Below are positions 2,736 to 43,030 of a stretch of DNA of 64,000 nucleotides, piece after piece; the stretch's first letter is position 1; each line of letters opens with the position of its first letter. A program made the translations under genes and the position numbers. The notes under the pieces were generated by a model that searched no databases, was not told where the DNA came from, and was given only the letters and a program-made list of their open reading frames with translations. The stretch comes from an uncultured Mycoplasmatota bacterium (GTDB lineage Bacteria; Bacillota_I; Bacilli_A; RF39; UBA660): assembly GCA_948466315.1 (NCBI GenBank), contig CAOJZZ010000001.1:16931-80930 (forward strand), written 5' to 3'.

Positions 2736-2948
2736 CTAATCTAAAATTTCCAAATTTTGAATCAACAAATCACTATAACTAAAAGAACGAATTTGACAAT
2801 TATCTATCGTAATAATAAAAATAGCTGGATAAAAAGCAGTAATAACACCATTAAACTCTTCTATTTGATTCCTAGTTCCATGAAATCTAAACAAATGATT
2901 CACTCCAATATTCTCTTTAACAATATTTCTCATCTTATCTATTGTCAT
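2736..2948 (-). CDS. veg: Veg (DUF1021) biofilm/sporulation-associated small protein
   Basis: The 70-aa ...RFHGTRNQIEEFNGVITAFYPAIFIITIDNCQIRSFSYSDLLIQ... matches Veg. It sits immediately downstream of yabG as in Bacillus. Confidence 0.8.
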   Translation of the reverse strand: MTIDKMRNIVKENIGVNHLFRFHGTRNQIEEFNGVITAFYPAIFIITIDNCQIRSFSYSDLLIQNLEILD

Positions 2949-3478
2949 CTTGGATACCCCACATACATTGTTCCATTCGTAATAATCCCTCCCATTCCAT
3001 CTTTTCCATATTTTGTTTTCTCAATAAGTCGTATTAAATCAATACTTTGATTTCTGTCAGATAACGCTAACGATGAAGCAATAATAGCTGGATCAAGTGC
3101 ATGAATATTAATTCTCTTAGGACTAGAAGCAAAATTAGCACCAGCCTTTATCAATTCTTCATAATTAGATTGACAAGCCCCAGCAATAATTATTAATTTA
3201 TCCTGACTCTTTTCATACTTTCGAGCTACCTTAACTGCCTCTATAAAATTAGCTGTATTTTGATAATTACTATTATCATTTTCATCCTTCTTTTTATCGT
3301 AATAAGCATCATGTCCAGTAATAACCACTATATCTGGTCTAAAATCCTGTAATAATCCCAATATCCTATCAGGCATCTCCATCTCTGGCAAAGTAATACC
3401 ATTAGCCTTAATATTCATATTATGATAAAAGTTCATACACCGCTCTAAATAATCACGGTCACCATCTGCTAAACTTTT
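2945..3478 (-). CDS. yabG: yabG 3' segment, the C-terminal ~175 codons of sporulation-specific protease YabG. It has no start codon of its own and is open upstream only to an in-frame stop at 3476-3478.
   Basis: DIVVITGHDAY...LIIIAGACQSNYEELIKAGANFASSPKRINIHALDP matches the YabG C-terminal catalytic region. The conserved region begins ...ADGDRDYLERCMNFYHN directly after a stop codon, so the gene is split. Its partner segment is at 13008..13316. Confidence 0.8.
   Translation of the reverse strand, partial: KSLADGDRDYLERCMNFYHNMNIKANGITLPEMEMPDRILGLLQDFRPDIVVITGHDAYYDKKKDENDNSNYQNTANFIEAVKVARKYEKSQDKLIIIAGACQSNYEELIKAGANFASSPKRINIHALDPAIIASSLALSDRNQSIDLIRLIEKTKYGKDGMGGIITNGTMYVGYPR
3458..3461. 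other. Predicted recombination core (GTCA) at the left junction of the intervening element (attL/attR)
   Basis: GTCA and a cGTCAsC.tc pattern are shared with the right junction at 13047..13050. Joining across it restores the YabG frame. Confidence 0.5.
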
Positions 3479-3708
3479 TTAAGTAAGCAAACTTATCATT
3501 AAAAGAAACATAATATTCCTAACAAAATAAAAAGTAGTCTAATTTTTCTAAACATAAAAATATAAACTACTACTAAATCATTATAATAACCAATAATTAA
3601 ACATAATAAGATAAAATACTCTATAAACAAGAAACCTTTGATAACTACTACAAATTTATCTTCAGATAAAAGAAATTAACAATATATTATATAAATAAAA
3701 AATTATGT

Positions 3709-5220
3709 CTAATCAATAGAAAAATCAAAAGATATCTGTACTGTATTATCCTTATAAATTAAAATACTATTAATCAAATAACTTATATAATCTTTTGACA
3801 AAAAAGAATTATTAATAAAATCTCTATAATAATCCATTATCCTTTCTTTTTTATATATATTATCTCTTTTAAAAAGATAACTATTAAGTAATCTTATTTT
3901 TCTATCTTTTAACTTCACCTCATAGTCCTTACTCTCAACAAATTGAGAAACTATAATCTCTCCATTTACCTTTTTCATATATAAATCTTTTATATTTCTA
4001 TCACTAAGTTCAATATCCTTTTGTAACTCTAGTATTTTAGTATCTATTCTCATCTTACTAATTAACCTACTACAAAAACTATTAACAATCACACTACCAT
4101 CAACATAATTCAATAAAATATTCATTACCTGCTTACTAACAATATCCATAAGAACACTATCATAAATAACTCTATTGCAACCTTTTTTTCTACAACTAAA
4201 ATAATATTTAATTAAGCCATCTTTCTTTTCTACCTTACATACTACCATCTTTTTACCACACTCTCCACAAACAACTAAATTATTAAAACAACCATTATAT
4301 TCAATATTTTTATATTTCTTTAATCTTTTAACTTTAGAGTTAGCCTTAGAAAATAAAATATCATCAATAATTACAGGATGAACATTATAAAGTAATTTTC
4401 TCTCAAAAATAGATATTCCCTTTCTTTTTTTATCCCTATAACTCCTTTTAAAACTCTTTCTTTCAACCAAACATCCAGTATACGTTCTATCTCTTAAAAT
4501 TCTATATATAATCTTATCTGACCACTTACAATCACCACTACTACTGACATCTTTTCTTTTATACAACTTAGGAGGCAACACTTTATCATCATTCAAACTA
4601 TAAGCAACCTCACTTCTCGTCATACCAGAAGAAATACTTTCAAAAATTCTCTTTACAATATCAGCTGCATATTTATCAATTTCTAAAGTTCTTTTATTAT
4701 TAACTTTAACAATTTTATAACCATAAGGCGCATAAGGACCAATAAATTCTTTATTAGAAGTTTTCATTCTAGCAACCAACTCTCGCTTAACAGAGCTATC
4801 CTTAACATATCTATCATTAATAATAGATTTAATTTCTAAAACTATATCCCTACTTAAACTATCAGACCGAAAACTATCATAATAATCATTAATCGCTATA
4901 TACCTAATATTATTTCTAGGAAAATATTCACTAATATAATATACAGTATCAATTGCTTCTCTTCCAAGCCTTGATATATCTTTTGTAATAATACATTTAA
5001 CCCTACCATTTGAAATATCATCAAGTAGCTCCATAAAGGCTGGTCTCAAAAAATTAATTCCCGAATAACCATCATCTACATATTCCTTATCAATAACAAA
5101 ATTATTTGAAAGAGCATATTCCCTAATCAACACTAATTGGTTATCTATACTAACAGAATTATCCTGAACAGAACCTAAATCTTCAGAAGAGACCCTAACA
5201 TAAGCACATACATGTTCCAT
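3709..5220 (-). CDS. large serine recombinase (resolvase N-domain, recombinase domain, zinc ribbon, coiled coil)
   Basis: 503 aa. The N-terminal AYVRVSSEDL contains the catalytic Ser, followed by DDGYSG...SRLGRE. A zinc ribbon CGECGKKM...C..C is present. Confidence 0.9.
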   Translation of the reverse strand: MEHVCAYVRVSSEDLGSVQDNSVSIDNQLVLIREYALSNNFVIDKEYVDDGYSGINFLRPAFMELLDDISNGRVKCIITKDISRLGREAIDTVYYISEYFPRNNIRYIAINDYYDSFRSDSLSRDIVLEIKSIINDRYVKDSSVKRELVARMKTSNKEFIGPYAPYGYKIVKVNNKRTLEIDKYAADIVKRIFESISSGMTRSEVAYSLNDDKVLPPKLYKRKDVSSSGDCKWSDKIIYRILRDRTYTGCLVERKSFKRSYRDKKRKGISIFERKLLYNVHPVIIDDILFSKANSKVKRLKKYKNIEYNGCFNNLVVCGECGKKMVVCKVEKKDGLIKYYFSCRKKGCNRVIYDSVLMDIVSKQVMNILLNYVDGSVIVNSFCSRLISKMRIDTKILELQKDIELSDRNIKDLYMKKVNGEIIVSQFVESKDYEVKLKDRKIRLLNSYLFKRDNIYKKERIMDYYRDFINNSFLSKDYISYLINSILIYKDNTVQISFDFSID

Positions 5221-5221
5221 A

Positions 5222-6787
5222 TTAAACTAAACAATCCTCAACCTTTTTAAAATTATAATATATTCTAACACACTTATCCTTATCAATAGTAATTTTATTA
5301 ATTAACTCCCTGATTAAAAGTTTATTAAAACCTCTTCCCTCTAAAAAATCACTTATTATCTTTTTTCTAATATTAATATCTCTATTTTGCTCATTAAATA
5401 AATTTATCTCTTCTCTTAACTTAACAATAGAAGAAGATATCTTATCTCTATCGCTTACTAAAAATTCTTTAATTTTAATAAATTCACTATCTAAAATAAT
5501 TCCATTACTCTTATCCTTATATAAAGAAGCAATACTCTTATCTATTTCTCTAAGTTTAACAAGATCTTTTCTTAATAAATTCTCATTATACTCAATAAAA
5601 CTACATCGATTAAAAATTTTTTCATATTCTTCTAAAAGTCTATCAAAACAAACATACTTATTTAATAAATTCTTAATCTCACCTAAGACAAGTTCATTAA
5701 GCAAATCTTCCCTGTAATAATGCATAGTACAAACATTATTTCTATAAGTAGCATAACTTCTACAACAATATATAGCATAAACCTCATCTTTATAACGCTT
5801 ACATCTTCTTACTAGCATCACCTTACCACAATCTGCACAAACTACTAAGCCTTTCAATAAGTAATCATATTTTCTTTTTCTAATATCATAATAAGAATTT
5901 TTACAATTAACTCTTTCAAAAACTTCATAAGAAATAATAGACTCATGATTATTTTTATTTATAATCCACTTTTCCCTAGGTAGAAGTACCCTCTTCTTAG
6001 ATTTTAAACTAACACGTTCATACTTCCCTTGAACTAAAGTACCAGTATAAACCTCATTACTTAAAATACCTTTTATAGTAGAAGCTTTCCACAAATTAGT
6101 GGTAAAATTTTTACTAACATTTCTACCTTTATATAGATTAGGAGGTAAAATCCCCCTATCAGTAAGATTCCTAGCAATCATCATAGTAGAAAAACCCTTA
6201 TCTCTCATAGAAAATATTTCTTTAACTATTAAAGAAGCATATTCATCAATTACCAATAAACGACTATCTTCTAAAGACCTTTTATATCCATATGGAACAG
6301 AACTGCCAACATACAAACCTTTCTTCATTAAACTATGCCTAGCACTCTTTATTTTTCTAGAAGTATCTTTTAAATACATGTCATTAATTACAGTTTTAAA
6401 AGGAATAATATCTTCAACCCCATTAGAATTAAAAGAATCATAACCCTCAAGTATTGCTATAAAACGAACATTATGTTCTGGAAAATATTTAAATATATAA
6501 TTACCTGTTTCAATAAACTCTCTACCTAACCTTGAGGTATCCTTAACAACAACGCAATTAACAAATCCATTCTCAATATCTTGAATTAATCTTTTAAAAC
6601 CTGGTCTCAAAAAATTCCCACCAGAATAACCATCATCTACATAATAATCATATATTTCTATTCCTTTACTTTTAACATATTCACTTATATAACTTTTCTG
6701 GTTAACTATACTAGAACTTTCAAATTCCTTATCATCATCCCTAGACAATCTAATATATAAACCAGCCTTATACTTAAAATTATCCAT
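5222..6787 (-). CDS. large serine recombinase, second of a tandem pair in a ccrA/ccrB-like arrangement
   Basis: 521 aa. The N-terminal LYIRLSRDDD contains the catalytic Ser, followed by DDGYSGGNF...SRLGREF. A zinc ribbon CADCGKVM is present. There is a 1-nt gap to the downstream recombinase. Confidence 0.9.
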   Translation of the reverse strand: MDNFKYKAGLYIRLSRDDDKEFESSSIVNQKSYISEYVKSKGIEIYDYYVDDGYSGGNFLRPGFKRLIQDIENGFVNCVVVKDTSRLGREFIETGNYIFKYFPEHNVRFIAILEGYDSFNSNGVEDIIPFKTVINDMYLKDTSRKIKSARHSLMKKGLYVGSSVPYGYKRSLEDSRLLVIDEYASLIVKEIFSMRDKGFSTMMIARNLTDRGILPPNLYKGRNVSKNFTTNLWKASTIKGILSNEVYTGTLVQGKYERVSLKSKKRVLLPREKWIINKNNHESIISYEVFERVNCKNSYYDIRKRKYDYLLKGLVVCADCGKVMLVRRCKRYKDEVYAIYCCRSYATYRNNVCTMHYYREDLLNELVLGEIKNLLNKYVCFDRLLEEYEKIFNRCSFIEYNENLLRKDLVKLREIDKSIASLYKDKSNGIILDSEFIKIKEFLVSDRDKISSSIVKLREEINLFNEQNRDINIRKKIISDFLEGRGFNKLLIRELINKITIDKDKCVRIYYNFKKVEDCLV

Positions 6788-6795
6788 AAAAGCCC

Positions 6796-6915
6796 CTATT
6801 TTTCAGTTTGTCTTTCTAATACATATTTTTCAAACAATTCTAATATTTTTTTATTAATATCAACCCCTTCATCATCATATACTGCTAAAACTAAATTATC
6901 TCTTTTTTTCATCAT
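6796..6915 (-). CDS. small ORF (39 aa) immediately upstream of the recombinase pair. It is a candidate excision-directionality or regulatory protein.
   Basis: My own translation: GGGAGG then ATGATG gives MMKKRDNLVLAVYDDEGVDINKKILELFEKYVLERQTEK*. It ends 8 nt before the recombinase ATG. It is too short for the ORF track. Confidence 0.3.
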   Translation of the reverse strand: MMKKRDNLVLAVYDDEGVDINKKILELFEKYVLERQTEK

Positions 6916-7731
6916 TAGCCTCCCACCTAAACATATGAACCTAAGTTTATGTAAAGACCAAAATTCAATCACCAAAAAACAGCATAGATTTTTCTATACT
7001 TTTTTTGAATATATATTGATATAAAAAATTTAAAAATATAACAATTACTAAGAAAGCTATTGTACTAGTAAAATATCGACACCAATAACTCCCTTTGCCT
7101 TAAAAAATTATAATTAATTTTTATTTTTTAAATAAATTTGCACAATAAAACTTATAATTATTAAATTTAACTTAAAAACTAAATATTTATAACAAATTAC
7201 CTAAGTAATTTACAATTAATAGATAAAATACGATCATGCTAAACTATTATCCATTAACTTCTATCAATTCATTAAGTTTAGAACCATTATAATTAATTTT
7301 ATTTAAATATTTATCAAAAGTATATTTTAATACAGTAAGATATATAAGATTGGGCCCTAAACCTTACAAAATAACTATAAAAGTCTAATACTTCTAAAAA
7401 TACTTATATTATCAAAACTATAATACTTAATTAAACATTAATTTACTTTTAAACAATTAATACTATGCATCAATCCCTTAGAAAATAATTGGATAAATTC
7501 TAGATTCGACTATAACTATTTTGACTAACTTAACAAAAATTCACTTAAGAGCTAGAACAAAATAAAACTATTAAATATATGAAAATATCCAAAAAAGAAT
7601 CAATATATATAATTTAATAACTACTAAGTATAAGCAGCAATACCAATAGTTACAACCAAATTTCTACAAAACATTACATTTAAACTTAAATTTAACTATT
7701 TTCAAATACTAAAACTATAAAATATTTATTA

Positions 7732-10700
7732 TTATACACTATCAATAATATCTAAAAATTCAGTATCCGTATCAATGAGTCGATTAATTAAATTATTAAA
7801 AATATGACTCATATTATTTATATAATTAGGATAAAAACCCATAGAGATTGGCACATTGTAATAACTAATATCGTCAATATTCCTAATATATAAATCTTTA
7901 TCTAAATAATTATCTTTTATAAAGATACTACATAACTCTTCTAAACCAAAGTATTCTACCATACTTTTATTATATTTAGGACCTGCCCTAGATGGAAATA
8001 ACATTTTAGTAATACATTTTGATAAAATTGAAAGATTTTCTAATAAAATATTATTATCAACATTATATTTATCAATTAAACTATTTCCTAATAACAAATT
8101 AATCTTTTTTAATTTATCTCTTAATTTAATAATACCCTGATTTTTGATAAATCCTAAATTACTAATAATAACAATATCTAAAACATCTTTTAATTCATAA
8201 TTAGAATAACTATCTATCAAATTACTCATATTTTGAATATTATAACTATTATTAAATTGACTATTACTTACACTATAAATACCATTTGAATATTCTATAT
8301 TTATAAATTTATTAACATTTGCTAAAGATCCATCACTAAATAATATTTTAGTGACAATTAATTGATAAGTATTATTATTCTCTATTGGTATAACTACCTT
8401 ATATAAAAACTCATCATCAAAAAACACCTCATAAAATATATCATTAATACAAATCTTACTAATAGATACATTTTTATTATGAATAATATTGAAGTTAAGA
8501 GCAATATAATCATTTAACTCGTGATTTAACGAATCACCAAATACATTTAAAATATCAACATGTGTCTTTGCTTCCACTTCTTTTTCAAATAACACAGTCT
8601 CGTTATTATTCACCTGACTAGAAAAACCAATAATTTTTACTATATACTTAGAAGAAATATTAGTATCAAAATTCTCCTCTATTTTATTATTATTAAAATC
8701 CTTAGTATTAATATCCTTAGAATCAATTACCATTCCTTTATCATCTAATAATACCAATTTAACTTTATAAATACTATTATCTTTATCATTTAATTCTGCT
8801 TTTACTAATAATCTATATAACTCTATATTCTCTTCTACTGAAAAATTCAAAATACTAGCCTTACGTTTAACTACATCAATATCTAATTTCTTTTCCTCAT
8901 CAAATATTATTCTTTTTCCGTTATCTAAGACAACCCCTTCAATATATATATCCTGTTTACCCAATTTATTAAACTGTAAAATAACCGCACTATAAATATC
9001 TCCATCTTTTATAACATCATAATATTTCCCATTAACTATTACTTTTTCTACAAAACATAAACTATTATTAACACTAGAAAAAACAATTTTTGGACTTTGT
9101 CCTTTTTCAAAGATATTAGTAGTATCAACACCATTAGTAATTACAATATTATCTATCTTAAATTGATAATCTTCCACTAATTGTAATTTTTTAGTAGTCT
9201 CTACTACATTTTTATGACTAATTTCACTAGTACCTGATTTATCCATATCTAAATCATATTTCAAAATAAATTTAACATTATATAATTTTCCAGCCTCAAC
9301 TGGAATAAAAATACTATTTTTCCCCTTTTTAATTGACTTACTATCAATAATATTGCCTACATCATCATCTACTCTAATAATAGAAGAAGAAATACTATTA
9401 TCATCATCTATTAAATTAAATGATAAATTTATCTTTTTTTCATCAACATATTCTTGCGTTATATAATTATCTATTCTAGGAACATCTTTTAAAACCTTTA
9501 TTTTTCTTGTATAATCAACATCTACTCTGTTACCATTATCAAATAATACCTCTGTAAAATGATATTTCTTAATCCCAGATGAATCACCAGTATTTACTCT
9601 TACTGAATATTGACTGTTACTATCAAAAACTTTATCTACCTTATACTTAACTCCATCTATTACAACTTCCACTATATTAAAATCATTTCTAACTCCTGCA
9701 ATAAATGATAAATCTATATCTTCATCTTTATTAAATGTTTCCTCCTCAACCTGCTTTATAGTAGATAAATTAACCTCATTTACTAAATCACCATCAATTT
9801 TCTTATTCAATCTTGATAAATCAGTAATTGTAATACTTTTATCATTATTTATATCGGCATTTTCTAAAGCTTTATCATCTAAAGATTTTATCTGAGTTAA
9901 ATGATACTCTAATGAGTCAACATCCAGATAATCTATTACACCATCATCATTTAATTCTCCCTTTTGCATAAATTTATAATATAATGAACTACATACTATA
10001 AGTCCTTGCAAAAACACTAATAAAGCTACTATAAATGCAAAAATTTTCTTATTACTATAATCATCGTCATAATAATAATCACTACTAAATCTTCTAATAA
10101 TTGCATATATTATAATTACTAATAAAAATACAACCACCAAGATTATTTCATTAAACTTACTTTTCTCTTGGAAATTACTAACTACTTTAAAATTTTCATT
10201 AATATAAGAAGATTTAATTGTATCTTTAGTAGTAAAATTACTATTTAAATGCTCTACTTTAGAATCATCTAATTTCCCACTATCATTAATAACATCTACT
10301 TTAACAATCTTATCATCAATAAATAAATCTTTTCTACCATCGGAGGCAACAATATCTTTTAACTTTATTTCTGTTGTACCAATATCAACATCATTTCTTA
10401 CCTTAAAACTAATTACTAACAAATCTTCTATCTTTTCATTACCATCTTTTCTAATAGAAACAAACTCACCTGTAATTTTATTATATTGTAAATTCCCCCA
10501 ATAGTTTTGACATAAAAAATCTTTCTCCGATAATTCCTCAAAAATATTTTTATTATAATCAAGTCTTGCTTTATAAGCATTAATACCGAGACCATCTTCC
10601 ACATATTGCTCTAACTTTAAAGTAACAACTAAAGTCTGACCACTTTTTATTTTCTCTTGATTAATACTTGCAGCAAAATCTAATTTAGACTTAGCCAATA

Positions 10701-10767
10701 CTGGTATAACAGAAAAAAGCAGCAAAAAAACAATAAACATTATGGTTATGTTAATAATTTTTTTCAT
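7732..10767 (-). CDS. large membrane-anchored surface protein with signal peptide, a cohesin-like N-domain, two TM helices and a dockerin-like Ca-binding repeat pair
   Basis: Signal peptide MKKIINITIMFIVFLLLFSVIPVLA. TM helices at ~aa 205-225 and 240-262. Dockerin-type loops: NDDGVIDYLDVDSL and DINNDKSITITDLSRL. The C-terminal ~700 aa is repetitive and beta-rich. Confidence 0.55.
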   Translation of the reverse strand: MKKIINITIMFIVFLLLFSVIPVLAKSKLDFAASINQEKIKSGQTLVVTLKLEQYVEDGLGINAYKARLDYNKNIFEELSEKDFLCQNYWGNLQYNKITGEFVSIRKDGNEKIEDLLVISFKVRNDVDIGTTEIKLKDIVASDGRKDLFIDDKIVKVDVINDSGKLDDSKVEHLNSNFTTKDTIKSSYINENFKVVSNFQEKSKFNEIILVVVFLLVIIIYAIIRRFSSDYYYDDDYSNKKIFAFIVALLVFLQGLIVCSSLYYKFMQKGELNDDGVIDYLDVDSLEYHLTQIKSLDDKALENADINNDKSITITDLSRLNKKIDGDLVNEVNLSTIKQVEEETFNKDEDIDLSFIAGVRNDFNIVEVVIDGVKYKVDKVFDSNSQYSVRVNTGDSSGIKKYHFTEVLFDNGNRVDVDYTRKIKVLKDVPRIDNYITQEYVDEKKINLSFNLIDDDNSISSSIIRVDDDVGNIIDSKSIKKGKNSIFIPVEAGKLYNVKFILKYDLDMDKSGTSEISHKNVVETTKKLQLVEDYQFKIDNIVITNGVDTTNIFEKGQSPKIVFSSVNNSLCFVEKVIVNGKYYDVIKDGDIYSAVILQFNKLGKQDIYIEGVVLDNGKRIIFDEEKKLDIDVVKRKASILNFSVEENIELYRLLVKAELNDKDNSIYKVKLVLLDDKGMVIDSKDINTKDFNNNKIEENFDTNISSKYIVKIIGFSSQVNNNETVLFEKEVEAKTHVDILNVFGDSLNHELNDYIALNFNIIHNKNVSISKICINDIFYEVFFDDEFLYKVVIPIENNNTYQLIVTKILFSDGSLANVNKFINIEYSNGIYSVSNSQFNNSYNIQNMSNLIDSYSNYELKDVLDIVIISNLGFIKNQGIIKLRDKLKKINLLLGNSLIDKYNVDNNILLENLSILSKCITKMLFPSRAGPKYNKSMVEYFGLEELCSIFIKDNYLDKDLYIRNIDDISYYNVPISMGFYPNYINNMSHIFNNLINRLIDTDTEFLDIIDSV

Positions 10768-10900
10768 ACCATTCTCCCCCCAAATTAGCTATTGCCTAAT
10801 ATACTAATATAAAATCAACTAACTTGCAAACATTTTTTCTCTAAATAAAGAAAATATCAATAAAAACTACTATAATTAAACAAGTTTCCTCTACTTTAAC

Positions 10901-12214
10901 TTATTTTTTACTTTCAGCACTATTAACATTTCTATCAGAAAAACGTCTTACAAAACTTTTTACCTCTTCATCAAAACCACTATAACAAATACTACTATCT
11001 AAAATATCAAAATTACTATCTAACATAATATTTTTATTAGGTAATACATCTAACTCTAAGATTTTCTCAATTTTCAATCTTTGTCTATAAAAACCATATA
11101 TTTGTTCAACTTTATCTAAAGTTGTAAATTCTTTTATTACATTAGTCATATCAGCTATTATATTACTTAAATTTTCTGAACCTATAACTTTATAATAATT
11201 TTTTAAATTATCATTTCGAGAATCACACAACTTTGTATATACTATATAGTACTCATCCTCTGCCAAATTACTCTTCAAAAAAGATAGCAAAGTTCGCAAT
11301 TTAGGCTCAATTACAACAAGCATTCTATCATCTACAACTTTATTTATAGGATTTACTACACCATTTCTTTGTATTACTTCAAAAATAGGTTTAAGTTTCT
11401 TTAACGCTTTTGACTCAAGTTGATTAATTCTAACCCGCGTTAACTCTAAATCCTTACCAACCTCTTCCTGTGTCTTAGCAGGACTTTTTATTATTCTATT
11501 ATAAATAATATAATAATCTCTTACACTCAAAACATTATATAAAGTCCTTAAAAGAATTAATTCATCATATTCTCTTTCAACGTCTAAATAAACATTTTCT
11601 CCATATGAAACAGTATCAATTAATTCCTCGTCTAGATTATCAGGTAATTTTTGATTTAATGATAATGTATCAAAAGAACTTTCCCTTTCTATATACTCTA
11701 AAAAACTATCACTAATTTTTAAGTGCTTAATTAATTGATTCCTTGTAGGATATACACCATTATCTCTAAAATATTCTTGAACATATCTCGAATATTTTCT
11801 CCTCTGACTATTAAAACGCACTGACAATTTCATATTTTTATCAATTTTATCAATATTTCTTTGTAATGATTTTTCCATTGCATAACCTAAATATGTAGAT
11901 AATTTAACTCCTTTATTTATATCAAACAATCTAACTGCATTCATTAAAATTAAATTATTCTCTTGAATTAAATCTAAAAAATCAAGATTACTACAATTAT
12001 TAATAAAGCTACCTGCTTTAAAAAAAGCTAAGCCTAAATTATGTATTACTAATCTTTGAAATGAAGTTAAATCACCATCTATTTTATACCTTTTTAATAG
12101 CTCTTCTGTCTCCTCACCTGTTAATAAAGGATAATTCTTCATATCATCAATATATATATCAATTATTTCTAAACTTCTACTCTTATACATATACTTTCCC
12201 CTCTTTTTCGTCAT
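10901..12214 (-). CDS. sigma-70 family RNA polymerase sigma factor with a ~150 aa C-terminal extension
   Basis: Region 2-like LTSFQRLVIHNLGLAFFKA and FDINKGVKLSTYLGYAMEKSL. Region 4 HTH TQEEVGKDLELTRVRINQLESKALKKLK. Confidence 0.65.
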   Translation of the reverse strand: MTKKRGKYMYKSRSLEIIDIYIDDMKNYPLLTGEETEELLKRYKIDGDLTSFQRLVIHNLGLAFFKAGSFINNCSNLDFLDLIQENNLILMNAVRLFDINKGVKLSTYLGYAMEKSLQRNIDKIDKNMKLSVRFNSQRRKYSRYVQEYFRDNGVYPTRNQLIKHLKISDSFLEYIERESSFDTLSLNQKLPDNLDEELIDTVSYGENVYLDVEREYDELILLRTLYNVLSVRDYYIIYNRIIKSPAKTQEEVGKDLELTRVRINQLESKALKKLKPIFEVIQRNGVVNPINKVVDDRMLVVIEPKLRTLLSFLKSNLAEDEYYIVYTKLCDSRNDNLKNYYKVIGSENLSNIIADMTNVIKEFTTLDKVEQIYGFYRQRLKIEKILELDVLPNKNIMLDSNFDILDSSICYSGFDEEVKSFVRRFSDRNVNSAESKK

Positions 12215-12346
12215 ATTATATCATATTAACTAAAAAGAAAAAAGAAAAAGCTTAAAAAGTTATTAAATATTTGACACTTACACAAAAATAGTAGAAAATT
12301 ATAGACAAAACAAAAAAAGAATCACTAAATGAATTCCTTCTTTTTA

Positions 12347-12808
12347 CTACCCACAAAGTAATTTACAATATTTGGAAAATAACTTATAAGTATCAGGATT
12401 TTTACTAATAAATTCAATATTAGAAAAATCATAGTTAACTGCATTTTTTGATATTTCTTCTAATATACTTTGATCTTTAGTATATATCTCAACAAAAACA
12501 TTATCAACTATAAATATGATAAGTTGGCAAGAACTTTTTAAAAATTGATTATAATTCTCAATATCATCTATATCCTTATTTTTGTAATGCATCTGTAAAT
12601 TTAAAAAGATTGGATAGTGTTCTTTTTGAATAATCTTTCGAAACTCATCGTTATTATAATTAGTTTTCTCAAAAAAAGCTTTTCCTTGTTCTCCCAAAAC
12701 TTCCTCATTCTCTATTTTCCACATATATTGTGAACAATCTATATCATGAAGTATTTTAGCCAAAATTTTACTATATTCATTTTTTATTATAAACTTTATC
12801 CCTATCAT
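12347..12808 (-). CDS. hypothetical protein (element cargo)
   Basis: 153-aa ORF with no recognisable motif. Confidence 0.4.
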   Translation of the reverse strand: MIGIKFIIKNEYSKILAKILHDIDCSQYMWKIENEEVLGEQGKAFFEKTNYNNDEFRKIIQKEHYPIFLNLQMHYKNKDIDDIENYNQFLKSSCQLIIFIVDNVFVEIYTKDQSILEEISKNAVNYDFSNIEFISKNPDTYKLFSKYCKLLCG

Positions 12809-13007
12809 AAAACCTCCTCAGATGTTAAAAATTAAATCATTAATTTCTACACAGTTCTTATGTTATGTAATGTTGATCAAAATTAATATTAAATTTAGTT
12901 ACTTAAGCATACGTCAGCCCCCTGTTTAGGAGAGCAATTTTTTTTAAAATTTTGGCGTTTTTTGTCATTTTAGAGATTTTTTTATAATTTTCTATTTTTC
13001 ATTTTCT

Positions 13008-13316
13008 TTATTTTATAAAGGTTTCAGAGTGGTTACTTAATCGAACGTCAGCGTCAATATGCAAAATCTTACCAGGTAAATAAAAATACTGACTTCTATC
13101 TATCTTTATATCTTTAACATTACGTTCAATTACCTTTTTATCATAATCAGTATCACCTCTACCAGCCTTAACTAAATCATCTACCTCACAATCAGCATAA
13201 AGTCTTAAATCTACACCTTTCAAAATAGCAACATTACCTTCAAAATCTATAATTTTAAATAAAATATCATGCTGATGAGATATTCGTGTAACAAAATCTC
13301 CAATTCTAAAATCCAC
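13008..13316 (-). CDS. yabG: yabG 5' segment. ~90 N-terminal YabG codons are fused to 12 element-encoded codons (VRLSNHSETFIK*).
   Basis: MDFRIGDFVTRISHQHDILFKII...LRLYADCEVDDLV...YLPGKILHIDAD matches the YabG N-terminus (QIGDMVARKSYQMDVLFRII...HMPGKVLHLDGD). It is directly downstream of ksgA as in Bacillus. Confidence 0.8.
   Translation of the reverse strand: MDFRIGDFVTRISHQHDILFKIIDFEGNVAILKGVDLRLYADCEVDDLVKAGRGDTDYDKKVIERNVKDIKIDRSQYFYLPGKILHIDADVRLSNHSETFIK
13047..13050. other. Predicted recombination core (GTCA) at the right junction of the intervening element
   Basis: acGTCAgCgtc here compared with cgGTCAcCatc at 3456..3466. Confidence 0.5.
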
Positions 13317-18904: not shown

Positions 18905-19110
18905 AATAAAAAAAGATTATTAAAATATAAGGACGACAAAATCGCGGTACCACCTTATTTTATAATAATCTAATATTATACACTTTAATAGATAACGCTT
19001 ATCAGCGACTATACCTACATATCGATATAGTAGTTCAAAAGCCATATCCTAAAAAAAGACTATCCTCTTTTTCAGCAACCGAGGTCTCTAATATAGTCAA
19101 AAATTTTAAG
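18905..19110 (-). promoter_or_regulatory. T-box riboswitch leader of metS
   Basis: The minus strand carries AAGGTGGTACCGCG (plus 18944..18957). This sits inside a terminator helix GATTATTATAAAATAAGG/CCTTATATTTTAATAATC followed by U7 (plus 18908..18970). It lies upstream of an aminoacyl-tRNA synthetase. Confidence 0.6.
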
Positions 19111-19162
19111 ACTCTTCATCACAACTTTTAAAAAATACAATCCAAGTATAACATATCAAATT

Positions 19163-31263: not shown

Positions 31264-31283
31264 AATATCACTCCAAAATAAAA

Positions 31284-31364
31284 GTGCACATAAAAGGAGG
31301 TCCTTAAGGCTGCTATCTTCCGATCCTGACCTATTTCAAACACTTTTATTGCACAAGTTAATTC
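31284..31364 (-). ncRNA. ffs: signal recognition particle RNA, short (4.5S-like) form lacking an Alu domain
   Basis: The minus strand reads GUGCAAUAAAAGUGUUUGAAAUAGGUCAGGAUCGGAAGAUAGCAGCCUUAAGGACCUCCUUUUAUGUGCAC. It is a closed hairpin carrying the domain IV consensus AGGUCAGG-UCCGGAAGGAAGCAGCC-AAGG and is followed by a U-run. Confidence 0.75.
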
Positions 31365-31396
31365 TAATATAAATAATTCTTTTTGTAAACTATATT

Positions 31397-40803: not shown

Positions 40804-42162
40804 TTACACAATACCAATATCTTTTTTTAATTTCTCTATTATATTTGCTAAATCTTTATTAACCTTAATTTCATTTTCAATCTTTTCAACAGAGTGCATT
40901 ACTGTCGAATGATCTTTTCCACCAAATTCTGTTCCTATCTTAGGAAAAGATTCACTAGTCATTGTTCTACAAAGATACATTGCAATCTGTCTAGGAAAAG
41001 AAATATTAGAGCTCCTTTTTTTACTTCTAATATCCTCAACAGATATTTGAAAATATTCAGAAACTATTTTTTGTATTCTATGAATATCATTTTTTTCCCC
41101 CATTCCTTTACTAATAAAGTCTTTTAATGCTTCTAATGCTAAATCTAATGTAATATTAGCCCCACCCATAATAGTAGAATAAGCTATCAATCTAGTAACA
41201 GAACCTTCAAGTTGCCGGACATCAGTTCCAATATTAGAAGCAATATATTCAATTACATCATCAGGTATTTCTTGCTCAAAATTACCTGAAATTATCTTTT
41301 TTCTTAATATTTCTTTTCGTAAAGTAAAATCTGGAGGAAATATATTTACTGTTAATCCCCAACAAAATCTAGTTCTTAAACGGTCCTCCAATAACTTCAA
41401 ATCATCAGGAGATCTATCAGAAGAAATAATTATTTGTTTACTATCATTATAAAGGGTATTAAATGTATGGAAAAACTCCTGTTGTGTTTGAGTAGCTCCG
41501 CCTAAAAATTGAATATCATCAATAATAAGAACATCTATATTTCTATACTTATCCTTGAAAAAATCAACATAATTAAAATTTGTACCATTATCATCTTTTT
41601 TATTAATTCCAACAAAATCTTGTATAAATTGATCACTTGTAACGTAGAGCACTTTTTTATTTGTATTGGCAACTATATAATTACCAATAGCATGCATAAG
41701 ATGAGTTTTACCAAGACCACTATTTCCATAAATAAAAAGAGGATTATACATATTACCAGGGTTTTCCGCTACTGATAAAGAAGCAGCTTGAGCAAATTTA
41801 TTACTATTACCAACAATAAAGTTTTCGAACGTATATTTATCTTTTAAATTTGAATTTTCTAAATACTTTGATGTGGTTTTAACACTTTCTTCTTTTAATT
41901 CCTCCTTTTCTTGAATTTCCTCTTTTAATAATAATACCAACTCATAATTAGAACCAGTAATGGCTAATAATTTATCAGAAATTAAACTTGCATAATTATC
42001 AATTAAATGTTTTTTATGAATAGGCATTGGTACAATTATATAGGCCTTACCATTATGTAATCTATATAATTTAGTATCCGAAAACCAAGTTTCAAACGAA
42101 AGTGAAGTAAGTTCATCTTTTATTTGTCCTAAAAAATTGGACCATAAAATATCAACATTCAT
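40804..42162 (-). CDS. dnaA: chromosomal replication initiator DnaA
   Basis: AAA+ motifs GNSGLGKTHL and LIIDDIQFL, plus C-terminal DNA-binding domain IV. The likely start is the internal ATG (MNVDILWS); the track extends it to 42177. Confidence 0.97.
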   Translation of the reverse strand: MNVDILWSNFLGQIKDELTSLSFETWFSDTKLYRLHNGKAYIIVPMPIHKKHLIDNYASLISDKLLAITGSNYELVLLLKEEIQEKEELKEESVKTTSKYLENSNLKDKYTFENFIVGNSNKFAQAASLSVAENPGNMYNPLFIYGNSGLGKTHLMHAIGNYIVANTNKKVLYVTSDQFIQDFVGINKKDDNGTNFNYVDFFKDKYRNIDVLIIDDIQFLGGATQTQQEFFHTFNTLYNDSKQIIISSDRSPDDLKLLEDRLRTRFCWGLTVNIFPPDFTLRKEILRKKIISGNFEQEIPDDVIEYIASNIGTDVRQLEGSVTRLIAYSTIMGGANITLDLALEALKDFISKGMGEKNDIHRIQKIVSEYFQISVEDIRSKKRSSNISFPRQIAMYLCRTMTSESFPKIGTEFGGKDHSTVMHSVEKIENEIKVNKDLANIIEKLKKDIGIV

Positions 42163-42209
42163 AATACCACCCCGCAAGAAAACTAAACTACGATTAGTAT
42201 AAATTAAAT

Positions 42210-42386
42210 TGTGGAAAAAAGAAACAATTTTATGATAAAAAAATTATCAACAATTAATCAACAAACTTTTCCACTAAAAAACATATTGATATACTTCAAA
42301 AAAATAAAGTTTTCCACATTTTCCACAGTTTTTTATAAACACAATAGTAAAACTTATTCCACAACAATGTGGAAATTGTGGATTGC
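42210..42386. promoter_or_regulatory. oriC DnaA-box cluster upstream of dnaA
   Basis: DnaA-box 9-mers with one or two mismatches at 42210, 42310, 42319, 42355, 42368 and 42378 (TGTGGAAAA, TTTTCCACA x2, TTATTCCACA, TGTGGAAAT, TGTGGATTG). An AT-rich DUE-like tract follows. Confidence 0.75.
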
Positions 42387-42848
42387 AAATTAAAAAATAA
42401 TAAAAAAAATAAACTTTTAAATCACTCACAAAAAATTTATAATTAAAGATAACTATATACTTATTCTAGATAATTAAAATTTTCAATTTGATTAATAAAA
42501 GACTTAAGAAACTGGTATGAAGATATTAAATTTTTATTATTACCACCCTACTCTATAATACTAGCCAGAAAAATTCTAAATACTAAATAATAATTAGCTA
42601 CTAAATACCAATAAATTTCTTAGACTTGTTAAATAATAAAAAACTTCTATGTATAAAAATAACACTATATACTAATTCATCAATAATAATTTGATAAAAT
42701 ACAAAATTTTCCCTTCCTAAAAGATAAACATTTCTATACCAATATTTATGAATTACTTTTAGTATTACAACTAAATTAACACTTAATATAAATAAGCTCT
42801 CTTAAAAATAATGAAAAACTATCCTAAATAAATATTTTAAAAATATAA

Positions 42849-42878
42849 TTGACAAATCTAAACAATTCTTATTATAAT
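42849..42878 (+). promoter_or_regulatory. sigmaA-type promoter of rpmH-rnpA
   Basis: TTGACA (42849-42854), an 18-bp spacer, then TATAAT (42873-42878). Confidence 0.5.
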
Positions 42879-42907
42879 AATGGGGATTTATGTCTGGAGG
42901 TGGAAGA

Positions 42908-43030
42908 ATGAAAAGAACATATCAACCAAATAATCGTAAAAAAGCAAAAAAATTAGGATTTTTTGCACGTAAAAAAACAAATATTTTAAATCGTCGTCGT
43001 CGCAAGGGACGTAAACGTCTTTGCAAATAA
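42908..43030 (+). CDS. rpmH: 50S ribosomal protein L34
   Basis: My own translation gives [52 protein letters not shown] precedes it. It is below the ORF-track length cutoff. Confidence 0.95.

Follow-up and report, generated by a model that had tools for sequence, protein, structure and literature searches.

Paired large serine recombinases and a conserved small open reading frame in a family of cassettes that interrupt the sporulation gene yabG

The subject of this work is an intervening cassette of 9,589 bp (3467..13055, minus strand, one copy of its GA core counted) that interrupts the sporulation gene yabG of an uncultured Mycoplasmatota bacterium, and that was delimited from the split gene and its junctions in a 64,000-nucleotide stretch of the genome, called the window throughout. 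Three genes are located at the right end of the cassette, namely a small open reading frame (ORF) of 39 amino acids and the genes of two large serine recombinases (LSRs), here termed lsrA and lsrB; these and all other features of the cassette and of yabG given below lie on the minus strand. As read from the sequence, recombination between the attachment sites attL (core at 13055..13054) and attR (core at 3466..3465) at the GA dinucleotide would free the cassette and restore an in-frame yabG, and the three-gene unit serves a family of cassettes that are aimed at this exact position in yabG and carry unrelated cargo. The first-pass annotation had proposed the trio as the recombination unit of an element in a split sporulation gene, which was borne out by the identification of the two yabG halves and the co-inheritance of the trio in relatives. 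The reading put forward here, with moderate confidence, is that the trio serves a non-phage cassette of 9.6 kb as its unit of site-specific recombination, with the two recombinases as subunits of one enzyme and the small ORF encoding a directionality factor of the mother cell.

The split yabG gene and its attachment sites

The match to the YabG profile (Peptidase_U57) falls into two pieces, with profile positions 2-69 at 13008..13316 and positions 119-280 at 2945..3436. The 5' part of the gene (13056..13316) encodes residues 1-87 and ends in ...LHI, and the 3' part (2945..3464) runs from GDRDYLERC... to the stop codon. The break falls in the codon for Asp within LHIDGD, an invariant motif, and this codon is split by the core. 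Rejoining the two parts in silico at the GA gave a YabG protein of 260 amino acids that aligns without gaps to intact orthologues (73-90% identity) and in which LHIDGD and QYFYLPGKILHIDGD are invariant. In silico, the cassette shows the frame interruption and precise restoration by which sporulation gene-intervening elements are recognized. The left boundary was also met in an assembled Logan contig, L002, which departs from the window sequence exactly at ~13055. A second Logan contig of 9,592 bp, L005, was considered as an assembled circle of the excised cassette and rejected, since it spans the window from 13030 to 3437, breaks near both attachment sites and is a linear piece and not a permuted circle.

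Comparison of the junctions across loci identified the arms of the attachment sites. On the element side, attR (3465..3488) is made up of the P arm, GCTTACTTAAAAAAGTTTAGCA (3488..3467), and then the GA core (3466..3465), and it continues into the B' arm in the 3' part of yabG, TGGTGACCGTGATTATTTAGAG (3443..3464), which encodes GDRDYLE. At the other end, the B arm in the 5' part of yabG, ...GGTAAGATTTTGCATATT (13056..13077), encodes GKILHI and is followed by the element side of attL (13030..13055), that is, the GA core (13055..13054) and the P' arm CGCTGACGTTCGATTAAGTAACCA. Read through, attL is ...GGTAAGATTTTGCATATT-GA-CGCTGACGTTCGATTAAGTAAC... and attR is ...GCTTACTTAAAAAAGTTTAGCA-GA-TGGTGACCGTGATTATTTAGAG..., from which the junctions predicted for the products are ...AAGTTTAGCA-GA-CGCTGACGTTCG... 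for attP and ...TTGCATATT-GA-TGGTGACCGTG... for attB. The attP of the family is a near-perfect palindrome, GTTACTTAAC-N5-TCAGCA-GA-TGCTGAC-N6-TTAAGTAAC, and judging from these alignments the sole candidate for the central, crossover dinucleotide is GA, which is not palindromic. The P, P' and B' half-sites are alike, all starting with TG(C/G)TGAC (TGGTGAC... in the B' arm). The B arm does not resemble them, and the two arms of attB agree at 6 of 30 positions. Natural empty attB sites were found in relatives (L091-L093), where they lie within the gene order ksgA-yabG-veg.

An additional half-site of the P' type, GGGGGCTGACGTATGCTTAAGTAAC (12895..12920), is present 134 bp inside the left end; TGAC-N6-TTAARTAA is matched perfectly at just two places in the 64-kb window, of which this is one. 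When left ends were compared (including L001, L023, L033, L038 and L039), a second P'-type half-site (GGGGTGAC-N6-TTAAGTAAC) was kept 130-155 nt inside the left end in six of the seven elements, with neither a left arm nor a consistent GA core. Just after the P' arm there is also a small palindrome, CCCTTATAAAATAAGGG in the relatives and CCTTTATAAAATAAAG in the window (12990..13025). Both the internal half-site and the palindrome may be accessory binding sites. A generic repeat search of the element returned AT-rich noise only.

The recombinase pair and the cassette family

Two adjacent, complete LSRs of 503 and 521 amino acids, one nucleotide apart, had been described in the first-pass annotation, and the ORF coordinates, Pfam domains, motifs and AlphaFold2 models all agree with this. 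The gene lsrA (5222..6787) encodes 521 amino acids and lsrB (3709..5220), the distal gene and the nearest to the right end of the cassette, encodes 503. The "only distantly related" of that annotation can now be put as 35% identity over the full length (E = 2e-69). Both proteins match the Pfam families Resolvase (PF00239, E = 1e-18) and Recombinase (PF07508), and the catalytic motifs YVRVSSED / YIRLSRDD and DDGYSG...SRLGRE are found in the pair. The zinc ribbon (Zn_ribbon_recom, PF13408) passes in LSR-A with 45.7 bits and falls just short in LSR-B (24.3 bits against a cut-off of 25.3), although its four cysteines are kept in the family alignment. In AlphaFold2 models built from family alignments, each recombinase has a catalytic domain, a long helix E, a recombinase domain and a zinc ribbon, and ends in a long antiparallel coiled coil and then a short C-terminal beta hairpin; the closest structures found with Foldseek were the SPbeta SprA complexes and the PhiC31, Bxb1 and A118 integrases. 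By their domain matches and models, LSR-A and LSR-B are complete large serine recombinases, each with the catalytic domain, recombinase domain and zinc ribbon with coiled coil that define the class.

The nearest characterized sequences are TnpX (catalytic domain, E = 1.6e-30) and TndX (33% identity over the full length), and no relative above 37% identity was found in plasmid and phage collections. Membership of the CcrA/CcrB family was considered and rejected, since the best scores to the NCBIfam models (NF047343 and others) were 100-103 bits against a cut-off of 900. The label "ccrAB-like" given at first therefore stands for the layout of the two genes and not for their sequence family: the CcrB models score far too low, and TnpX and TndX are nearer.

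Relatives were collected in two ways. An alignment of the B family, used as the seed to scan one genome of each species, yielded 29 loci (L011-L039), and independent look-ups seeded with A-family proteins added three more for a total of 32. The B-family proteins of the 29 loci share 37-51% identity with LSR-B, and in every one of these loci an A-family gene (45-60% identity) lies directly upstream of B on the same strand, abutting or overlapping it; the A-seeded look-ups returned the identical layout of small ORF, A and B in 3 of 3. Across all 32 loci the order A-then-B is kept with a gap of at most 1 nt, and A and B are never apart. In 24 of the 29 loci, B is followed at a distance of 23-911 nt by the 3' part of yabG; among the other five, two contigs end too early, one cassette (L014) lies within a GNAT gene, in another (L023) the pair is beside the 5' part of yabG, and L015 has no yabG part in the locus. 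In sum, at least 27 cassette loci adjoin the 3' part of yabG, and the genomes of at least 30 other gut bacteria have the three-gene unit at the same spot in yabG. The complete elements are between 5.4 kb (L033) and 11.3 kb long, with L094 at ~5.6 kb; the smallest (5.4-5.6 kb) hold little beyond the trio, and the cargo is unrelated between cassettes, comprising an ATPase, a racemase, glycosyltransferases, ABC transporters and surface proteins.

The constancy of this layout bears on the notion that A and B derive from two nested or fused elements, each with its own attachment sites. The accretion of cassettes in tandem at one site (L002, below) and the duplication of an attachment-like half-site inside the left end could be taken in this sense. 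Against it, the gap of at most 1 nt is kept in 32 of 32 loci, including the 5.4-kb elements, in which a second element would not fit; a single pair of crossover sites was found, and the internal half-site has no left arm and no consistent GA core. The notion was rejected as scarcely credible.

Both families also bear marks of constraint. The catalytic motifs Y.R.S, NQ, DDG.SG, R.P and KD.SRLGR are invariant in 30 of 30 A and 30 of 30 B proteins, and the pairwise distances within the A family follow those within the B family (r = 0.94). Identity in the recombinase domain is 68% within A and 68% within B, compared with 34% between the A and B of one element, and the corresponding values for the zinc ribbon are 68%, 54% and 25%. 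The retention of motifs, the co-divergence and the domain identities indicate that A and B are constrained and co-inherited, with distinct and individually conserved DNA-binding domains. Two distinct DNA-binding domains, set beside three alike half-sites and one that differs, would fit a two-subunit enzyme. A contrary explanation, which we consider unlikely, is that a single recombinase, most simply B, which lies beside an attachment site, integrates and excises the cassette at yabG, and that the other is kept for a different reaction (at the internal half-site, at secondary targets or in the resolution of tandem arrays) or as a regulator. There is a precedent in the gin element, where GirC works and GirAB are dispensable, and such an arrangement would agree with the near identity of the attP half-sites, to which a homodimer could bind, with the conserved extra half-site inside the left end, and with two loci (L028 and L030) in which A has no canonical start codon. 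Unlike gin with its GirC, the cassette has no third recombinase; A and B never separate in 32 loci, keep all of their catalytic residues at 45-60% divergence and co-diverge at the r value given above, and their overlapping or abutting genes suggest coupled expression.

The variable cargo, the tandem in L002 and the second site in L014 mark these as mobile cassettes, similar to the staphylococcal cassette chromosome (SCC), that are able to stack at one site. In L002 the right end of a second cassette comes before the cassette of the window type, the two meeting exactly at the crossover, and this second one, recognized by an identical ORF of 165 amino acids, lies inside a GNAT acetyltransferase gene in L014. 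This second cassette (L002 1..2170; L014 8182..12110) has its own small ORF and A-B pair as well as the 165-amino-acid ORF, which consists of a resolvase domain only and has its catalytic Ser replaced by Ala (IYIRIAQ); a similar ORF of 148 amino acids is present in L011 (YIRVAH). In L023 (7741..11545) the A-B pair follows directly on the 5' part of yabG and attL, without a small ORF and with the cargo downstream, and the unit is thus at the opposite end of that element. In L016 (7482..11189) the 3' part of yabG is split again, after about residue 53 of the C part, by an insert that encodes a different serine recombinase of 648 amino acids, which means that yabG has at least two distinct insertion points. 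More distant relatives (L043-L082, from Anaerococcus, Peptoniphilus, Roseburia and others) have tandem LSR triplets of ~557, 556 and 497 amino acids (e.g., L056 9986..14815). The genomes with an intact YabG and those with a cassette are both labelled as "Mycoplasmatota", "Tenericutes" or "uncultured Bacilli" metagenome-assembled genomes, and as they carry yabG, spoVG, yabP and yabQ (L096 also SipL and YunB) they are low-GC gut lineages that resemble spore-formers.

The small open reading frame and a proposed mechanism

The third member of the unit is the 39-amino-acid ORF (MMKKRDNLV..., 6796..6915), the stop codon of which lies 8 nt before the ATG of lsrA. Its size and spacing had already been given in the first-pass annotation, together with a GGGAGG ribosome-binding site that is indeed present at 6924..6919. 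A small ORF of 34-54 amino acids is found upstream of A in 29 of 30 modules, with the conserved core LV(I/L)C(V/I)YD(D/E)....I..KILE.FE.Y and a median ratio of nonsynonymous to synonymous substitution rates (dN/dS) of 0.33, by which measure it is under purifying selection. Searches of Pfam, NCBIfam and PHROGs returned no match for it. The idea that it is a fragment or mimic of a recombinase N-terminus was rejected, as hhalign gave a probability below 1% against both families and Pfam gave no match. Size, conservation, position and a separate promoter fit a recombination directionality factor, for which the small ORF is the candidate, by analogy with known elements.

A -10-like sequence upstream of the small ORF, likewise noted at first, proved to be conserved in the family. 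It is the box CATATGTT (6937..6930), 22 nt upstream of the ATG, which together with the ribosome-binding site occupies 6919..6937 and is a putative -10 of the mother-cell (sigmaE/sigmaK) type. The window box is a copy of a family-wide motif, since CATA occurs 22-27 nt upstream of the small-ORF start in 28 of 29 modules, versus 5.4% of the other ORFs of the same loci, and TCATTAA lies 14 nt upstream of CATA in most relatives. The mother-cell sigma factors of Clostridioides difficile share a CATA-type -10 and have ATA (sigmaE) or AC (sigmaK) at -35 (PMC3789822). In about two thirds of the relatives, the spacer of 45-94 nt between the small ORF and A holds a sigmaA-like promoter (TTGnnA-17/18-TATAAT) at a fixed place, with at least 9 of 12 matches in 19 of 30 loci, and a conserved leader follows it. 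About 40 nt before the start of lsrA, this leader has the motif GTT(A/G)GTTA(A/G)G (L012, L016, L018-L022, L025, L026, L029-L034 and L039), which resembles the P-arm motif GTTACTTAAC and may be an autoregulatory site; with a spacer of only 8 nt, the window lacks it. There is no internal sigmaA-like promoter in this 8-nt spacer, which has no room for one, and transcription of the window trio would therefore start at the CATA promoter; by appearance, the three genes form a single transcription unit downstream of the CATA box. A scan of 3400..7800 for sigma-70 promoters and terminators gave a count equal to that of shuffled sequence, and was thus uninformative.

Taken together as a mechanism, LSR-A and LSR-B would act jointly as a two-subunit recombinase, with the DNA-binding specificity of one enzyme reading P, P' and B' and the other enzyme reading the B half-site in the 5' part of yabG. 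The protein of ~40 amino acids would be the directionality factor, and its transcription from a CATA promoter of the sigmaE/sigmaK type would take place in the mother cell, so that excision would rebuild yabG during sporulation. In most relatives, the recombinases would additionally have their own sigmaA-like promoter.

The part of this mechanism that concerns sporulation has an alternative, which is possible and, in our judgement, somewhat on the doubtful side. The cassette may be a mobile element of the ordinary kind, for which the conserved yabG is a landing site and whose excision has no tie to sporulation, with the small ORF as a transcriptional or translational regulator and CATA as an operator or a promoter of another type. 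Variable cargo, tandem arrays and the secondary insertion site speak of recent mobility, the -35 is imperfect and the implied leader very short, yabG mutants of model species still form spores, and TnpX-like enzymes are not known to need a directionality factor. On the other side, this signature protease gene of sporulation is disrupted in at least 27 independent genomes with both halves intact and in frame, the position of CATA is kept in 28 of 29 modules and the layout of two promoters copies the one in the C. difficile element skin (skinCd). In addition, the yin prophage in the yabG of Clostridium botulinum excises, and does so more at sporulation (PMC10747680).

Several observations weigh against the two-subunit, mother-cell mechanism that we prefer. 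Exact-pattern scans of JGI metagenome contigs gave 0 matches to the predicted attP junction and 0 to the same-species empty attB. The A genes of L028 and L030 begin without a canonical start codon, the A-B pair of L023 is without a small ORF, and the asymmetry of attB alone is no proof of a need for two specificities. In the window, the -35 region is a poor match for sigmaE, and the inferred transcription start leaves a leader of only ~10-12 nt. TnpX, TndX and the SCCmec-type enzymes work in both directions and are not known to need a directionality factor. LSR-A and LSR-B both end, in their models, in C-terminal beta strands of the kind that may occupy or block the site where such a factor binds (Shin et al. 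2025). Finally, the tandem girAB pair of gin is dispensable and unexpressed (PMC5595907), which argues against assuming that both enzymes are required. A bolder version of the mechanism is tentative at best. In it, the two-subunit LSR is obligate, A and B each read different half-sites of the asymmetric attB, the accessory half-site ~135 bp inside the element helps and the mother-cell factor of 40 amino acids switches the reaction to excision; the cassettes would be a widespread, undescribed SCC-like family, and yabG would be developmentally rebuilt in many gut spore-formers.

Cargo, genomic setting and related systems

Besides the trio, the cassette encodes a DUF2691 protein, a sigma-70-like protein of 437 amino acids and a cohesin/dockerin-type surface protein of 1011 amino acids. 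The sigma-70-family gene (10901..12214) has regions 2 and 4, with best matches of the RpoD/RpoS type that are far below the cut-offs, and its product has a C-terminal extension of ~160 amino acids; it is a sigma factor inside an insertion in a sporulation gene. The 1011-amino-acid protein (7732..10767) is a secreted one with a cohesin-like N-terminus and a dockerin domain, and a relative of more than 3190 amino acids is found in a like cassette (L023 11943..21515). Between the surface-protein gene and the small ORF lies an AT-rich, ORF-free stretch of ~750 nt (6976..7731) without an Rfam match, and the Rfam search found nothing elsewhere in the cassette. No phage or conjugation genes are present in the cassette. 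A prophage was considered and rejected, as the PHROG matches were to the integrase and the sigma factor only, with no structural matches, and the cargo of the relatives is non-phage.

The genome has a G+C content of 25%, and the window covers its replication-origin region. The genes dnaA-dnaN-recF-gyrB-gyrA are on the minus strand, and the GC skew switches at ~42-43 kb, the origin being marked by this switch (~42200..43000) between dnaA (40804..42177, minus) and the plus-strand rnpA/yidC. The gene order around the insertion is ksgA, yabG, veg, spoVG, yabP, yabQ, divIC. The window also holds a T-box leader (18926..19131, minus) and a small signal recognition particle RNA (31272..31365, minus).

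Among known systems, the layout is closest to CcrA-CcrB of SCCmec/SCC in Staphylococcus (and ccrAB-Ent in Enterococcus), with two adjacent, co-oriented and diverged LSR genes, C-terminal beta strands after the coiled coil, and a non-phage, non-conjugative element that has variable cargo, one fixed chromosomal target gene and tandem arrays (L002). Unlike SCC, which targets the 3' end of rlmH (orfX), the yabG cassette hits mid-gene codons, between LHID and GD, and disrupts yabG; its recombinase pair is preceded by a conserved ORF of ~40 amino acids and a CATA-type promoter, and the helicase and DUF genes associated with SCC are absent. TnpX (Tn4451) and TndX (Tn5397), the closest in sequence, share the type of C-terminal extension, but they are single enzymes that suffice in both directions and have a low or different target specificity. 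Serine integrase triplets of streptococcal and clostridial integrative and conjugative elements consist of tandem paralogues, which group according to position, and their insertion sites lie within protein-coding genes (PMC4701971). The yabG cassettes are similar in both of these respects, and the triplets of the distant relatives (L043-L082) show the arrangement of the streptococcal elements; the latter differ from the cassettes in having three genes, in being conjugative and in having no conserved small ORF.

The elements that interrupt sporulation genes offer a second set of parallels. It had been stated in the first-pass annotation that the known ones use a single LSR gene, which does not hold, because gin, in gerE of Bacillus cereus ATCC 10987, has three (girA, girB and girC), of which GirC together with GirX, a directionality factor of 42 amino acids, suffices (PMC5595907). 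Like the yabG cassette, gin is a small cassette, is not a prophage, interrupts a sporulation gene of the mother cell and has several serine recombinase genes, including a tandem pair, and a tiny factor; it differs in its target gene, and the tandem pair is the only recombinase set in the yabG cassette. In skinCd, the recombinase CD1231 is driven by sigmaA and the factor CD1234 by sigmaE/SpoIIID with a 14-nt leader (PMC5025042), and the same division is seen in the relatives, with a sigmaA-type promoter for the recombinases and a sigmaE-type promoter with a very short leader for the small gene. The combination of an LSR and a small acidic factor is common to skinCd (CD1231 and CD1234) and SPbeta (SprA and SprB), and SprA was the best structural match, but both of these have one recombinase, target sigK/spsM and are prophages or prophage-like elements. 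The yin element of C. botulinum V73 is a full prophage in yabG that its authors call unique, with no other yabG insertion known (PMC10747680). The interrupted gene is the same, and excision restores yabG in both (in silico for the window cassette), but yin has a single recombinase beside the 5' part of yabG and a predicted factor of 72 amino acids, whereas the window cassette is non-phage and 9.6 kb long, its two recombinases are on the 3' side and it belongs to a set of at least 30.

In the searchable literature, the yin prophage is the only element reported in yabG. What is new here is a recurrent, non-phage family of two-recombinase yabG cassettes with a conserved micro-ORF, which belongs functionally with skin, SPbeta, gin and yin. 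It adds a second natural system of paired LSRs that is unrelated in sequence to CcrAB, with well-defined attachment sites, of which attP is palindromic and attB asymmetric, around a GA core. With these sites and a candidate factor of 40 amino acids at hand, it becomes directly testable why two or three LSRs are needed in some elements, a long-standing question, and genome engineering would profit from heteromeric enzymes with non-symmetric targets. For the animal-gut spore-formers themselves, yabG emerges as a recurrent and precise target of a family of small cassettes, and its product, a coat and germination protease, is added to those whose genes the mother cell may rebuild during sporulation.

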